This document shows, piece after piece, positions 17,640 through 42,441 of a stretch of 64,000 bases of DNA. The DNA comes from Sminthopsis crassicaudata (lineage: Eukaryota), in NCBI RefSeq assembly GCF_048593235.1, contig NC_133618.1, forward strand, positions 605,510,889 through 605,574,888, in the 5' to 3' direction. A program made the translations under genes and the position numbers. The notes under the pieces were generated by a model. The model saw only the letters and a program-made list of their open reading frames with translations. It had not been told where the DNA came from and did not search any database. Every line of letters starts with the position of its first letter. The stretch's first letter is position 1.

Positions 17640-18020
17640 CTTTATGTGGATTTATTTTTAATCCTGCAACTTGTTTCTAGTAGTTTTTCAGTTGATTCTC
17701 TAAATATGCCATCATGTCATCTGCAAAGATGGAGAATTTGGCTTCCTCATTACCTATTCTAGTTCCTTTAATTTCTTTTTCTTCTCTTATTGCTAAAGCT
17801 AACATTTCTAATACAATATTGAATAATAATGGTGACGAGGGCAATCTTGTTTCACCCCTGGTCTCATTGGGAATGTAATCCCCATGACATATTATTTTAA
17901 ATAGATGCTACAGATCATTTTAAGGAAAACTTCATTAATTCCTGTACTCTTTACTGTTTTTAATAAGAATGGATGTTGGATTATCATTTTTTTCTGCATC
18001 TATTTAGATAATCATAAGAT
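17640..18020 (-). mobile_element. L1 ORF2 (RT region) fragment
   Basis: atcatgtcatctgcaaa...ttcttctcttattgctaaagctaacatttctaatacaatattgaataata is typical antisense L1 RT sequence. Confidence 0.8.
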
Positions 18021-18290
18021 TTCTGTTAGTTTGATTACTGATATAATTATTTAGCAGATACTTTAAAAAGGATGGATTTAATCCTATGATTTCTGTTAGT
18101 TTGATTACTGATATAATTATTTAGCAGATACTTTAAAAGATGGATTTAATCCTATGATTTCTGTTAGTTTGATTACTGAGATAATTACTTAGCAGATACT
18201 TTAAAAAGGAGGGATTTAATCCTATGATTTCTGTTAGTTTGATTACTGAGATAATTACTTAGTAGATAATTTCAAAATGATGGATTTAGT
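18018..18290. repeat. Minisatellite: about 3.9 copies of a 68-70 bp L1-derived unit
   Basis: Units gatttctgttagtttgattactga... start at 18018, 18088, 18156 and 18226. Confidence 0.95.
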
Positions 18291-19038
18291 TTTCATCTTT
18301 TGGGCCGCACGTTCCAGCTCTTAAATGGACGAATTAGTTGAACTCAAAAAGTCCTTTTTAACTCGAGGGCTTGTGAATGCAGGTCACAGAAGGAGGAGGA
18401 ACTCAGTTGTAATACATCGTCATTGTAATGTGAAAAAAGTGTCCCCGGTTTACACGGGATCTGGCTTAGAACTGATTGAAGTGTTAAGGCATACAACCAT
18501 TGAAATACAATTGAAAAAATAAGCAGTCTCCCGACTATCACGGCGCGTCCGCGGAGCTGGAAAGTCTCGGTGGATCAGGAATTGCCTGGCCCGATCGGCG
18601 GTGCAGCGAAGAGGGCTGTGGAGGCCGGGCAGAAGACGAAGGCCCAAATCCTGGCGCTTTCCCCCTGCTTTTGAGGCCTTGGGAAGTCGGCTAACGTGGA
18701 CGGGGCCGTTTCGGTCAGTCAGTAAGCACGTAGGGAGCGCCCCGCTACAGCTTCGGAGACACAGAAGTCAGGGTCAGCTCTCCCCGGACTCACGGGCTAA
18801 GGGGCGTGGCCTGCTGGGGCTCTCAGGTCATTTTATGATCAGACTCTGTAAGGGATTTATTATCCGCTAAAAGAAAACTAGTTCATCGTTGGGAGGCTCT
18901 AATTTGGGGGGAAGTACTTTCGCTTTTCTTAATGGCGTTTCTCTCCTCGGTCCGTCAAGAGTGTACTTTGCACCTCATTAAGGGACAAGTACTCCCTCCA
19001 CACCCTCCTAAGGTATTCTTAACCCTGCCCACACGACT

Positions 19039-19046
19039 CTTTTATA
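19039..19046 (-). promoter_or_regulatory. TATA box (TATAAAAG) facing away from BTAF1
   Basis: The + strand cttttata is TATAAAAG on the - strand, embedded in GC-rich promoter sequence. Confidence 0.4.
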
Positions 19047-19085
19047 CCCGAGCGGAGGCGCGTGGGGACGCTCTCCCCGACGTCC

Positions 19086-19093
19086 TGACGTCA
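19086..19093. promoter_or_regulatory. Full palindromic CRE (TGACGTCA)
   Basis: Exact CREB/ATF consensus in the presumptive proximal promoter; occupancy is not shown by sequence. Confidence 0.6.
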
Positions 19094-19213
19094 CCGCGCG
19101 CCGACGGGAGGCTCTGCGCATCCTCGCACACTCGCCGGTGGCGGCGTGCTGACGCTTGCGTCAGCAAGGAGCGGGGCCGGGGGCACCCGTTTTGAAGTCG
19201 ACTGCTGGCCGGC

Positions 19214-19260
19214 GGCTGCTGCTGTTGCTATTTCCTTTGCTGGTGCTGTTGCTGCTGCTG
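19214..19260 (+). repeat. Interrupted (CTG/GCT)n tract in the presumed 5' UTR
   Basis: gctgctgctgttgct...gctggtgctgttgctgctgctg. Confidence 0.75.
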
Positions 19261-19317
19261 AACCCCCTCCGATTCTCTTCCTTCCGCGAGGACCGGCTCG
19301 GGGAAGCCTCGGGGCAG

Positions 19318-19353
19318 ATGCGCGAGAGGCAGCCGCGGGGTTCACTTGTTTAG
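19318..19353 (+). other. Candidate uORF in the BTAF1 5' UTR (MRERQPRGSLV*)
   Basis: The only ATG I found between about 19150 and the main ATG; weak Kozak context (cagATGc); stops at TAG 145 nt before the CDS. Assumes the TSS lies upstream of 19318. Confidence 0.45.
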
Positions 19354-19498
19354 GCTCCTGGCCCCGAGGCCTCGGGCCTTGCTCCCCGCCTCGGGGGCCC
19401 CTTGCTAGCGCCTCAGCCGCCACCCCCTTTCCTCTGCGCGACGCCCCGGGAGTCCCGAACCGCCGCCCCCTTCCCCCACGGCGCCGGGCCGGCCGGCC

Positions 19499-19512
19499 AT
19501 GGCCGTCTCCAG
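19499..19512 (+). CDS. BTAF1: BTAF1 coding exon 1 (MAVS-R)
   Basis: gccATGGCC GTC TCC AG|gtgagt in a CpG island. It encodes MAVS plus the first 2 nt of Arg, matching the BTAF1 N-terminus MAVSRLDRLF, and its phase joins exon 2. Confidence 0.95.
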
Positions 19513-20689
19513 GTGAGTACCGCGCGCTCGAGGGGGGCTGGGTCACCGAGGGACCGCGGGGCTGGGGCAGGGACGCGCCGACCTGCTCCCTTCTTTGGGC
19601 CGGGGCGCCGAGATCGGTGCCCACTTCCCTGAGGGACCGGCGCGAGGAAGGGGGGAGGCTCCCACCGCCGGGGGCAGAGGTGCCCATTGTCACCTGGCGG
19701 AGGCTCCAGCCGCAGAGTGTTCCGGGCTGGACCACTTGGCTCGGTTCCGGGAGGTTCCCCTTGTTGGGGAATCGGTTCCTGAGCATGTCAAGAGCCCCTC
19801 CAGTCGCTCCTTTCTTAACTGGTTTCCTTTCTGGGTTTTCGCCGTCCTCCTGCCAAACTCTAGCGCTAACTTTCCCCCCCCTGTCCCTTACGCATCTGGC
19901 TATTAAAAGTACATTCACCTTTTCTCTCTCGTGCTACGTCAGACGGCTGGGGTGTATACTATAGAAGTATGGAAAAGCTCATTCATTAAGATGAGTTAAT
20001 ACAGCCCAGTCTCCCACTGCTTTATGGATCAGCTCTTCCTTGTGAGAGCTTTAGTTGCTTTTCCTGTCTTACTCCTTTCATTATTGTTAACTCGGATTTG
20101 TCTTCCTCCCTTTAAAAGGCAATTCTTAAACATAAGCAGTCATCCTTTTCGTGAAGCCGACCTCACAAAATTTAAATGTTTTAGAAATGCTGGCAGTTCG
20201 AAGCAGTAAAAGGGAAAGTCATAAAGCAATTACAGAAATAAAAAATCGGGTATCGAACCCCTCCCCTTATCCCTTCTACTGCACTTTCCTTAGGTTCCCT
20301 CAGATGAGCCACTCCCCCTGGTCCTCCAAGCAGCCGGGGCTGGTAACTTGTATTTTGATCATTCTGTCCTACATAGCCATGCATGTGCATTGATGCCCCG
20401 TGAGATGATGGAACGCAGAGTCCAGCCATTTGCTCTGAGGCAAGTTTCAAAGCTGGAAATGATGTGTTCACTATATTCAGCAGAAACTTCTGGCTACTCA
20501 GAAAACAAAAATGTCTTCCTTGGATTTCCTTAAAATTAAATCACATTTATTGAGTGTTCAGTATATATATTTGGAGAGCTAATCTGTTGTGTAAGAATAG
20601 AGATGCTCTTATCGCTGATATATGTTTCACAGATACTCTTGCATCCTGATGGAGTGAGGAGAGGTAGTGGTATAGTACCAATTGGCTAT

Positions 20690-20915
20690 GATGAAAAAGA
20701 TGTTGCTAGGCTCATTTCACTCAGCATCAGTTCATGTAAGTCTCTCCAGGCCTTTCTGAAATCATCCTGTTGGTCATTTCTTACAGAACAATAATATTCC
20801 ATAACATTCATATACCACAGTTTATTCAGCCATTCTCCACTTCTCCAGTTTCCAGTTTCTGGCCACTACAAAGAGGGCTGCCACAAACATTCTTGCACAT
20901 ACAGGCCCCTTTCCC
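20690..20915 (-). mobile_element. L1 ORF2 3' fragment
   Basis: Near-copy of the L1 text at 32840-33060 (ctcatttcactcagcatcagttcatgtaagtctctccag...). Confidence 0.8.
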
Positions 20916-32399: not shown

Positions 32400-33197
32400 C
32401 CCTAATTTTATAATTATAAAAAAATTTTTGACAGTACATATGCATGAGTAATTTTTTTTTAAATAACATTATCCCTTGTATTCATTTTTCCAAATTTTCC
32501 CCTCCCTCCCTTTACTCCCTCCCCTAGATGACAGGCAATCCCATACATATTAAATGTGTTAACAGTATAACCTAGATACAATATATGTGTGTAAATCCAA
32601 TTTTCTTGTTACACGTTAAGAATTGGATTCCAAAGGTATAAGTAACCTGGGTAGAAAGACAGTAGTGCTAACAGTTTACATTCAATTCCCAGTGTTCCTT
32701 CTCTGGGTGTAGTTGTTTCTGTCCATCACTGATCAACTGGAAGTGGTTGGATCTTCTTTATGTTGACGATATCCACTTCCATCAGAATACATCCTCATAC
32801 AGTATCATTGTTGAAGTGTATAATGATCCCCTAGTTCTACTCGTTTCACTCAGCATCAATTCATGTAAGTCTCTCCAAGCCTCTCTGTATTCCTCCAGTT
32901 GGTCATTTCTTACAGAACAATAATATTCCATAACATTCATATACCATAATTTACCCAACCATTCTCCAATTGATGGACATCCATTCATTTTCCAGTTTCT
33001 AGCCACTACAAAAAGGGCTGCCACAAACATTTTGGCACATACAGGTCCCTTTCCCTTCTTTAGTATTTCCTTGGGGTATAAGCCCAGTAGTAGCACGGCT
33101 GGGTCAAAGGGTATGCACATTTTGGTAACTTTTTGGGCATAATTCCAGATTGCTCTCCAGAATGGTTGGATTCTTTCACAACTCCACCAATAATGCT
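32400..33197 (-). mobile_element. 5'-truncated L1, ORF2 C-terminus plus 3' UTR
   Basis: ORF 32782-33120 (IPFDPAVLLLGLYPKE...NGCPSIGEWLGKLWYMNVMEYY) is the L1 ORF2 tail; same family as the copies at 26158 and 41770. Confidence 0.92.
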
Positions 33198-37336: not shown

Positions 37337-37764
37337 TCATGTTTTTCTCATTGTTTCTTTGAATCTGAGAATTCTACTTTTCCAATCATTCGGGGTTAGG
37401 ACTTCATAAGACAAACCATCTAGTAATATTTTAACATAAGCTGATGTAGCCCCATAAAGGGTACAACCTTTTTTCAAATCCTTAATTTTATTCAAATCTA
37501 AAGGTGCATATCTTCTCCTTTTTTGACCTACAGAGTCAATCACTTCAATCACAGGATATGCATGTATAAAGTCACTTATATCCTGTCCTTCTCTTTTAGC
37601 TTTAACCAATGCTTTTTCTAATCTTGTCGTAGGCTTAGGCTGCTTCACAGGCAATTCTATTTGTGTTTCTGCCTCTTCCCCTCCTCCTTCTTCCTCCACC
37701 TCTGACGGTGGGGCTGTCAATAATCTGCTCTCTAGGCAGGGTTGAAGCTTCTTCAAGAGAATCA
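37337..37764 (-). mobile_element. gag: Betaretrovirus-like gag fragment (late-domain region and capsid N-terminus), matrix deleted
   Basis: LTAPP (PTAP-like), TRLEKALVKAKREG...AYPV and LNKIKDLKKGCTLYGATSAYVKILLDGLSYEVLTPNDWK resemble beta/ERV2 capsid (cf. HERV-K LKDMKEGVKQYGPNSPYMRTLLDSI..LIPYDW). Homology is lost after DWKS. Confidence 0.85.
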
Positions 37765-37782
37765 TGCCCTGTTCAGGCGCCA
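37765..37782 (-). other. Second primer-binding site, for tRNA-Lys3
   Basis: TGGCGCCTGAACAGGGCA vs TGGCGCCCGAACAGGGAC (15/18), also preceded by CA plus 3 nt. Confidence 0.75.
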
Positions 37783-37854
37783 AATTGCAAAGGTCTGGGC
37801 TAGCTCCTCTGAAGGGCTCAGAATATGTCCTTGTCAGGATAAGGAAAAGTCCTT

Positions 37855-37872
37855 GCCCCACATTGGGCGCCA
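37855..37872 (-). other. Primer-binding site for tRNA-Lys1,2
   Basis: TGGCGCCCAATGTGGGGC vs TGGCGCCCAACGTGGGGC (17/18; the mismatch is CpG decay), 3 nt after the LTR-terminal CA. Confidence 0.85.
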
Positions 37873-37875
37873 ATT

Positions 37876-38328
37876 TGTAATGTTCTTGAATTGTGAGGGT
37901 CTGGTCAATTATAATCCTTCTCTGGGAGGAGATCTGTAAAATCTTTTCCTCTGTGCACAGGTTTCTTGGGAGCTCTGAATCTCCTCCAACTCTTGTCCTT
38001 TCTCAAATCAGACTGGTCTCCTTTCAGCCTGCCTGGCATCAAGACTTTATCCCAGAGTCCATTCTCTCAGACCCAATGCTGCCCTTCTTTTATCCTCCCA
38101 GAGAATGGGCGTGGGATAATGCAAGGGCTTCTGGGAAATATTACTTCAAACAATAAGCTCCTCCTAGAGTTCCTAAGGTGTAAACTCCCTTTAAAGGCCC
38201 GAACCAAAGGTCTGAGCCAGAGAACTGTCAAGTCAACCTGAATTCTCACCTTGTCACTGTCCAGACAACCTGAGTTCTCACCTTGTCACTGTCCAGACAA
38301 CTTGAGTTCTCACCTGGTAATCCTAACA
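37876..38328 (-). mobile_element. 5' LTR of an antisense ERV in BTAF1 intron 1
   Basis: On the - strand it begins TGTTAGGATTACC and ends ...CATTACA directly before a tRNA PBS. It has a GATAAAA TATA-like motif and 32-bp direct repeats near its 5' (U3) end. Confidence 0.8.
38236..38315. repeat. 2.5 copies of a 32-bp direct repeat in LTR U3
   Basis: acctga.ttctcaccttgtcactgtccagaca at 38236 and 38268, partial copy at 38300. Confidence 0.92.
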
Positions 38329-41769: not shown

Positions 41770-42441
41770 GATTTATTTATTTTTTCAAAGTTTTGGGTTT
41801 TTTTTAAGAATTTTTTTCCATAGTATATATGCATGAGTAATTTTTTTTTATAATATTATCCCTTGTATTCATTTTTCCAAATTATCCCCCCCCTCCACTG
41901 TCTCCCCCCAATGACAGGCAATCCCATACATTTTACATGTGTTACAATATAACCTAGATACAATATGTGTGTAAATACCATTTTCTTGTTGCACATTAAG
42001 TATTAGATTCCGAAGGTATAAGTAACCTGGGTAGATAGACAGTAGTGCTAACAATTTACATTCACTTCCCAGTGTTCCTTCTCTGGGTGTAGTTATTTCT
42101 GTCCATCATTGATCAACTGGAAGTGAGTTGGATCTTCTTTATGTTGAAGATATCCACTTCCATCAGAATACATCTTCATACAGCATTGAAGTGTACAGTG
42201 ATTTTCTGGTTCTATTCATTTCACTCAGCATTAGTTGATGTAAGTCTCTCCAAGCCTCTTTGTATTTCTCCTGCTGGTCATTTCTTACAGAGCAATAATA
42301 TTCCATAACCTTCATATACCATAATTTACCCATTCTCCAATTGATGGACATCCATTCTTCCAGTTTCTAGCTACAACAAAAAGAGCTGCCACAAACATTT
42401 TGGCACATACAGGTCCCTTTCCGCTCTTTAGTATTTCTTTG
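41770..42441 (-). mobile_element. 5'-truncated L1 with an 11-bp TSD
   Basis: ORF2 C-terminal remnant (KLWYMKVMEYYCSVRNDQ) plus 3' UTR; TSD ttacccaaatt at 41759-41769 and 42442-42452. Confidence 0.9.

Follow-up and report, generated by a model that had tools for sequence, protein, structure and literature searches.

A retroviral genome usually has a single primer site and a single LTR end, and in typical betaretroviruses gag and pro are not in one reading frame. More than one tRNA-binding site is found in Ty3, which has a bipartite primer-binding site (PBS), and a laboratory HIV-1 mutant described by Li et al. in 1997 is said to have stably maintained a dual PBS for tRNA-Gly and tRNA-His. Since the position of the primer sets the right-hand end of the DNA, as passages of two papers on retroviral reverse transcription explain (PMC13191261, PMC11181671), a genome with two used sites is predicted to leave LTRs of two lengths. 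Among beta-like endogenous retroviruses (ERVs), sections of the work on SERV-1 and SERV-2 (PMC8775094) and on mouse ETn/MusD (PMC7472051) describe switching between tRNA-Lys3 and tRNA-Lys1,2, as well as PBS insertion and mismatch variants that are common across the tree and are interpreted as a way of evading tRNA fragments, with 50:50 reversion; the block of a perfect PBS by tRNA fragments is reviewed in the same sections for both groups. Drosophila Gypsy has a 5' and a 3' PBS for the same tRNA at opposite genome ends, only the 5' site being needed for cDNA, according to part of its description (PMC1635307). In HIV-1, plus-strand strong-stop products that copy the whole tRNA (P1) or stop at ms2t6A37 (P5) are characterized in extracts of two papers as minor and unable to complete transfer or integrate (PMC13191261, PMC8599865). 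The closest named element is marsupial endogenous betaretrovirus 3 (MEBrv 3), presented in portions of its report as class II, env-less, abundant in dasyurids and equipped with identical LTRs, with a Pol value of 44.4% to Bat faecal associated retrovirus 1 in the paper's table (PMC11334065). A term search of that report detected neither PBS, primer binding nor tRNA in the main text, and neither PBS, primer nor tRNA in the supplement.

The locus analyzed here lies on the minus strand of a 64-kb stretch of DNA (the window), for which the original prediction, made from the sequence alone, had proposed an ERV leader with two different tRNA-Lys sites in tandem followed by gag. The 5' LTR of this copy belongs to an older subfamily and in its short form, TG...CA1, spans 453 nt (37876..38328, with TG at 38328 and CA at 37876); it is 93-95% identical to both LTRs of L148 and L154. 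Three nucleotides after the LTR begins PBS1 (37855..37872), which matches the 3' end of tRNA-Lys(CTT) (Lys1,2) at 17/18 positions, the sole mismatch being at a CpG. It is followed by a 72-nt spacer ending in CA-ATT (37783..37854) and by PBS2 (37767..37782), which matches a tRNA-Lys(TTT) (Lys3) isodecoder in L064 at 16/16 positions and the common gene at 15/16. The predicted order of sites and the predicted spacer were confirmed with the tRNA-Lys genes of the host's own genome, and the claimed 13/16 match between the spacer end and the U5 was found as described, in an alignment reached by 1/1000 shuffles. The long LTR form, TG...CA2 (37786..38328), takes in PBS1 and the spacer, and in other copies target duplications flank this whole unit. 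Within the spacer, 9 nt (37798..37806) are complementary to the tRNA-Lys(CTT) 5' end and are where whole-tRNA copies land at other loci. The spacer also contains a second attachment site that copies a U5 end (37783..37795), where CA2 ends at 37786 and is followed by 3 nt; other copies use it as an LTR end. An older-looking end is also present in the window U5, 16 nt inside CA1.

Comparison with 5 sister copies revealed a deletion of 0.61-0.66 kb in the window copy, which removed the leader and the 5' part of gag and left a joint with 4-nt microhomology. It clips PBS2, so that the predicted site is real but only 16 of its 18 nt are left, the last two letters assigned to it lying past the deletion. 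Likewise, gag does follow PBS2, but what is present is its middle, up to the start of the capsid domain (37379..37762; Gag_p24, E=5.5e-9, Pfam), rather than its start. The gag piece ends at 37379, beyond which the sequence does not belong to the family, and no 3' LTR of this copy was found within the 64-kb window. Folding of the window leader gave z=+0.41 and no stable structure. Part of the window stretch was detected in 20/24 rows of public runs, all under a single organism label and none recorded as RNA, in contigs too fragmented to span the cassette, and the LTR-flank junction of the copy was recovered in contigs of two public runs. The window copy is a broken member of a high-copy dual-PBS ERV family, and its interest rests on that family. 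Elsewhere in the window, a GC-rich region (17939-18346 and 18001-20000), probably a CpG island, contains a ~70-nt tandem repeat and has 129 CpG in 2 kb, and the dispersed repeat families D1-D11 (e.g., 9401-9651, 20618-20868, 32747-32997, and 42122-42372) are probably remnants of old LINEs and SINEs.

A DNA search of the host's own genome returned 5,053 candidates, 40 of which were scored, and the cassette was present in nearly all of the best 30 fetched. Exact patterns gave 2,458 matches genome-wide for the spacer core and 2,542 for PBS2 plus leader, compared with 0 for the reversed control patterns. The first 30 PBS2-plus-leader loci comprised 27 double forms, 2 with a single Lys3 site directly after U5, and 1 truncated copy, and both sites were present in 59/60 fetched proviruses. 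Single-site copies (including L213 and L220) account for 2/78 distinct PBS2-plus-leader starts in a sample biased toward the cassette. The arrangement LTR-PBS(Lys1,2)-spacer-PBS(Lys3) is therefore the family norm and is common to several diverged LTR subfamilies and spacer lengths; the youngest subfamily, also the commonest young one, has a 51-nt spacer, and the window copy represents an older 72-nt subfamily. Between the two options that the original prediction left standing, a dual-primer lineage and a chimera of two ERVs, the data favor the former: the double form has undergone replication in thousands of copies, and each site defines an end of integrated DNA; a one-off chimera is rejected for the present family. 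By these searches, the cassette is neither a chance match nor a misassembly beside the sequence gap, the other concern raised with the prediction.

The family is a class II (beta-like) ERV by its Pol, its LTRs, a polypurine tract (PPT) before the 3' LTR in 54/60 proviruses, a 6-bp target duplication in 46/60, and tRNA-Lys sites 2-3 nt past the LTR (a 2-nt gap at site 1 in 49/59 and a 3-nt gap at site 2 in 59/60 fetched proviruses). Its Pol shares 93% identity with a Tasmanian devil protein and 44% with that of Bat faecal associated retrovirus 1, in line with MEBrv 3 and hence with a host that is probably a dasyurid, and the best named viral matches are betaretrovirus Pol proteins. Having two sites and two ends, the family departs from the single primer site and single LTR end usual in class II ERVs; as class II is defined by Pol, this is no reason to remove it from the class. 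Elements are mostly ~3.2 kb (the dominant, non-autonomous class) or ~6.2 kb (gag, pro, and pol, no env); the internal region is at most 5.4-5.5 kb, and in the 7 long copies checked pol ends ~0.3-0.6 kb before the 3' LTR. Pfam domains in L275 are Gag_p10, p24, zinc knuckle, RVP, RVT_1, RNase_H, and rve. In most 6-kb copies checked, including L275, gag and pro occupy one reading frame, unlike in the published MEBrv 3 representative. Some copies have been multiplied by tandem segmental duplication, with 11 mostly ~22-26 kb apart near the start of C1 (L033-L043) and 5 spaced 27.9 kb apart (G000:C1:375744821-375856319).

The original prediction overlooked the main consequence of the double arrangement, namely that priming at PBS2 places PBS1 and the spacer inside the LTR. 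We examined LTR ends in 60 proviruses of one chromosome, picked in positional order from the PBS2-plus-leader match list, with the first 8 Mb and one inverted pair skipped; 13/60 are the same places as in the first-30 set, and the exact selection pattern favors the youngest subfamily. A short 3' LTR ending at CA1, before PBS1, with a 6-bp target duplication was found in 42/60 proviruses, and a long 3' LTR ending at CA2, before PBS2, with PBS1 inside and a 6-bp target duplication, in 4/60. The rest were 5 short forms in which no duplication was called automatically, 3 whose ends were not found, and 6 that had no 3' LTR within 9.3 kb. Two further long proviruses were chosen by place (L325 and L326). 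The median identity of LTR pairs is 99.79%, and 20/46 pairs are identical; pairs with 100% identity occur in the long form (L228, L254, and L326) and in 18 short copies, so the two forms are contemporary. Because the nearest family members differ by ~2% in U5, the near-identity within pairs argues that both LTRs of a provirus came from one template type. Solo LTRs likewise end at either position: target duplications were located at CA2 in 14/30 spacer loci (12 without segmental copies), and, among 30 U5 loci, at CA1 in 13 (8 without segmental copies) and at CA2 in 1. Young long LTRs ending in flank number 66 among the first 100 matches listed. Long LTRs are common in the older subfamilies with 72-nt spacers and make up ~1 in 10 among young proviruses.

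Single copies can nevertheless mislead. In 5/20 older loci the R/U5 of the 3' LTR belongs to another subfamily, and L164 carries a Lys3 copy at PBS2 yet has a short 3' LTR. Plus-strand transfer between molecules thus occurs and looks common in the family, which means that a double 5' end combined with a short 3' LTR is no proof of dual use in any single copy; the argument rests instead on identical LTR pairs, the scarcity of single-site donors, and tRNA copies left at the sites. Mosaic structures include proviral LTRs with a shared U3 and different R/U5 (L150, L152, L155, L156, and L167) and, in L164, a 5' end and a 3' LTR from different priming sites. At two places (G000:C3:195400864 and G000:C3:551185784) U5 is followed by an inverted primer site and then a second LTR. 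A 50-nt tandem repeat of the second half of the spacer adds CA-ended units before PBS2 in 11 loci (L014, L015, L022, L044, L121, L141, L159, L161, L162, L167, and L028); four PBS-like sites are present in L028. Repeated extension seems to shift the LTR end outward.

Copies of the primer tRNAs themselves were found at both sites. Lys3 copies were sought with a 31-nt pattern from L023, by which only copies of at least 39 nt are detectable; its 27 matches comprise 9 tRNA-Lys(TTT) genes (ARAGORN) and 18 non-gene copies with a CCA end, 17 of which sit after the spacer. All 18 stop at 39-44 nt, 9 of them at exactly 39 nt, which corresponds to tRNA position 38 and adjoins ms2t6A37. The ms2t6A37 block is a known minor stop of plus-strand synthesis in HIV-1, as noted in an extract of PMC13191261. 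Copies of tRNA-Lys(CTT) with CCA number 75 in the genome; among the 30 fetched, 24 have a family LTR upstream (BLAST), 25 run for at least 54 nt, and 11 are whole. They begin exactly at site 1, and whole copies are 76 nt long. In several loci (L092, L102, L104, and L112) the whole tRNA copy rejoins the cassette at the 9-nt spacer match and continues into CA2 and PBS2, and whole-tRNA captures carry two different isodecoders, which indicates that capture recurs. Of these loci, L092 and L112 are complete proviruses in which U5 is followed by a whole 76-nt tRNA-Lys(CTT), CA2, and PBS2; both have a target duplication, a short 3' LTR, and LTRs that are 100% identical. To form this structure, Lys1,2 must prime at site 1 and the acceptor strand must have been copied past PBS2, i.e., from a double-site template. 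Cross-priming is rare and runs both ways, with Lys1,2 copies at site 2 (L090, L099, and L101) and Lys3 copies at site 1 (L095 and L065). Read-through copies essentially lack target duplications at their tRNA end, and most of them therefore look like one-ended insertions.

Fold-back elements made of an LTR, a tRNA copy, and an inverted LTR also occur (L091, L097, and L107), with a 6-bp duplication at the two U3 ends in L107. The tRNA-Lys(TTT) gene at L064:1464-1536 carries a compensatory acceptor-stem change and matches the T at position 8 of the window PBS2. That T is present in 8/18 Lys3 read-through copies (L061-L084), compared with 0/18 for the comparable first-CpG change (p=0.003), and its excess suggests that the minor isodecoder in L064 may prime a large share of read-through events.

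Since insertions of this high-copy, env-less, beta-like ERV terminate at one CA or the other, reverse transcription is likely primed from both sites, a reading of integrated DNA to which we assign a probability of about 0.92. In the proposed scheme, one RNA would carry R-U5-PBS1-spacer-PBS2. Priming by Lys1,2 at PBS1 would yield U3-R-U5 LTRs and leave PBS2 in the leader, whereas priming by Lys3 at PBS2 would copy the spacer and PBS1 into strong-stop DNA, producing LTRs 70-90 nt longer with PBS1 inside. Integrase would then use the second CA, trimming 2 nt at site 1 and 3 nt at site 2 to judge from the gaps. Either provirus would again transcribe both sites into an RNA ending in R, and the double form would renew itself. 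In the youngest subfamily, ~9/10 insertions appear to have come via PBS1, as estimated from 46 copies on one stretch of a single chromosome. The cassette would be lost by mis-transfer from one site to the other; collapse to one site does happen and stays rare.

Three other accounts of the two ends can be weighed against this one. A lineage that shifted between sites, with one working site per subfamily or period, would agree with the drop in long LTRs from common in the older 72-nt subfamilies to ~1 in 10 in the young one, and the ratio may indeed have moved; however, the youngest subfamily shows both ends with 100% identical LTRs and has left 66 young long LTRs ending in flank among the first 100 matches listed, so that succession is largely refuted and very unlikely. 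Scarcely credible is the proposal that short LTRs arose by intermolecular transfer from co-packaged single-site (Lys3) RNAs, with PBS1 a mere passenger in the long LTR. Single-site copies do exist (L213 and L220; 2/78 starts), intermolecular transfer is visible in L164 and L150, and PBS1 variants lack the expected correction, but single-site copies are too scarce to supply 42/46 ends, the 5' and 3' U5 are identical within a provirus although relatives are ~2% apart (46 pairs match their own 5' LTR), and the Lys(CTT) copies start exactly at site 1, two of them in complete proviruses. That the arrangement is a one-off recombinant of two ERVs or a misassembly by the N stretch might be suspected from the window copy itself, deleted as it is and truncated 55 nt from that stretch; with thousands of copies bearing distinct flanks and target duplications, and the window LTR-flank junction in contigs of two public runs, this explanation is next to impossible.

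Given dual priming, the origin of the cassette can be considered. We put at about even odds, on the basis of sequence comparisons, that it arose by capture of a whole primer tRNA, which we prefer to a plain duplication followed by a primer switch. Plus-strand DNA would have read through the whole tRNA-Lys(CTT) and landed by microhomology on a U5 end, duplicating the attachment site, and the captured tRNA body would then have decayed into the spacer. The spacer end is a copy of a U5 end (at most 1/1000 shuffles reach either alignment), and the U5-PBS duplication of the original prediction is upheld in this part, the attachment site before PBS2; the remainder of the spacer may instead be a decayed captured tRNA, as it shows a weak in-order alignment with the tRNA-Lys(CTT) body (p=0.03; p=0.06 for Lys3). 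A tandem duplication of the U5 end and PBS, after which the second site switched to Lys3 by mispriming, stands a little below even odds. It accounts for the alignment of the spacer end with the U5 ends, and the cross-priming seen in both directions speaks for it; it leaves unexplained that the part of the spacer just before the U5-end copy resembles the tRNA 5' end more than U5, and that the spacing of the two sites is nearly equal in the window (90 nt) and in whole-tRNA captures (86 nt). The idea that U5 is itself a decayed Lys3 copy was rejected, as the similarity was not above shuffles (p=0.42).

Whatever the origin, many copies carry a variant of PBS1 that differs by one substitution and an insertion of 1 nt. 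Its derivation from another tRNA was rejected, since the variant plus tRNA continuation has 0 matches in the genome. The variant is present in 20/42 short proviruses and 31/66 long LTRs (the latter scored by eye among the first 100 matches listed); L286 was rescored by eye from perfect to variant. One parent pool with 50:50 reversion would give an expected share of 23.5% in short copies, compared with the observed 48% (p=0.0005); the variant is thus not depleted in PBS1-primed copies, and the simple 50:50 reversion model does not explain the data. The PBS1 state is unlinked to adjacent sequence (agreement 0.52 compared with 0.49 shuffled, 54 copies), and nearest-neighbor agreement is 0.37 for U5 and 0.50 for the spacer, compared with 0.49 shuffled, with all four closest pairs discordant. 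Two further signals were discarded: an association of the PBS1 variant with a CpG change in PBS2, seen in 5/5 early copies, was gone genome-wide at ~49 variant to 51 perfect (by eye, first 100 of 112), and an excess of variant PBS1 in one pattern count was an artefact of a trailing H in the pattern.

A variant share near 50% in every class is what escape from tRNA-fragment silencing would predict, and it fits the hedging against tRNA supply or tRNA fragments that the original prediction put forward as a possibility, although rival explanations exist. We tentatively suggest, as the weakest of our inferences, that the two sites are kept because tRNA fragments block a perfect PBS1, a mismatched PBS1 escapes, half the progeny revert, and PBS2 serves as a bypass. 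On one such reading, nearly all site-1 progeny would come from variant parents, half of them reverting, and copies with a perfect PBS1 would replicate mainly via PBS2, in keeping with the block of perfect sites reviewed for ETn/MusD and SERV. It is also possible, at somewhat short of an even chance, that the pair confers no benefit: a few highly active source copies would renew it mechanically, and repair that keeps the RNA-derived strand, together with recombination, would hold the variant at ~50%. Selection would then be unneeded, since either route regenerates both sites, and the equal variant share in long and short classes is what an absence of correction predicts. However, the cassette occurs in several diverged LTR subfamilies and with spacers of different length, derivatives with a single site remain rare although they do arise, and the independence of the PBS1 state even from adjacent U5 and spacer, with the closest pairs discordant, fits reversion in each round. 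The complete account, in which one RNA serves two reverse-transcription programs, the second site was born by whole-tRNA capture, and the pair is kept as a counter-defense against tRNA fragments, is unlikely to be right in all its parts.

These results bear on how such elements are annotated and interpreted. A single primer site and a single LTR end are taken for granted by LTR finders and in solo-LTR counts and LTR dating; in this recently active family, which has two sites in use, the place where the LTR ends can be decided anew in each round. Two sites also offer a route for LTR growth and primer switching without a dead intermediate. Long LTRs keep the PBS1 of the parent uncorrected and short ones pass it on via tRNA copying, so that thousands of copies can separate reversion from selection, and the persistence of a mismatched PBS by escape from tRNA fragments becomes a countable question; if the proposed scheme is true, each long LTR would preserve the primer site of its parent uncorrected, as a record built into the element. 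Read-through copies provide germ-line evidence for stops known mainly from HIV-1 in vitro reactions and may, on the same proviso, record germ-line tRNA modification states.

Comparison with described systems places the family nearest to MEBrv 3, with which it shares the env-less state, the identical LTRs (20/46 pairs), and the 44% Pol match to Bat faecal associated retrovirus 1; its Pol is, as judged by eye, nearly identical to that of the MEBrv 3 representative. In the parts of its record compared by eye, that representative differs in an unrelated-looking LTR, one Lys1,2-type site with no second one in its leader, separate gag and pro frames, and a length of 7.3 kb, whereas in the family there are two sites and two LTR ends, most 6-kb copies checked have gag and pro in a single frame, and a non-autonomous 3-kb class dominates. 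A shared Pol combined with a different LTR, leader, and layout makes the family a sub-lineage of the MEBrv 3 clade rather than the form of the representative. SERV and ETn/MusD carry one site per genome and switch between copies, whereas here both sites stand in one leader and long LTRs record the uncorrected PBS1 of the parent. Gypsy and Ty3 also have more than one tRNA-binding site in their RNA, but the bipartite type uses one tRNA and one priming end and has no alternative LTR ends, in contrast to the two tRNAs and two DNA ends found here. The tRNA-Lys(CTT) and tRNA-Lys(TTT) copies stop at the same positions as the HIV-1 P1 and P5 products; in this family, however, dozens are fixed in the germ line, and some whole-tRNA products completed a provirus through the spacer landing. 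The dual-PBS laboratory HIV-1 likewise has, by the title of its report, two different primer sites in one genome; it was engineered and kept in culture, whereas the present family is natural and germ-line, with thousands of copies, LTRs of two lengths, and an additional attachment site. Among open-licence texts in PubMed Central and bioRxiv, no natural element with two tandem, different, used PBSs and alternative LTR ends was found, although notes in repeat libraries may list two LTR lengths. Primer switching between copies, bipartite sites, and a two-site laboratory HIV-1 are already known, and what appears to be new is a natural tandem dual PBS with two LTR ends.
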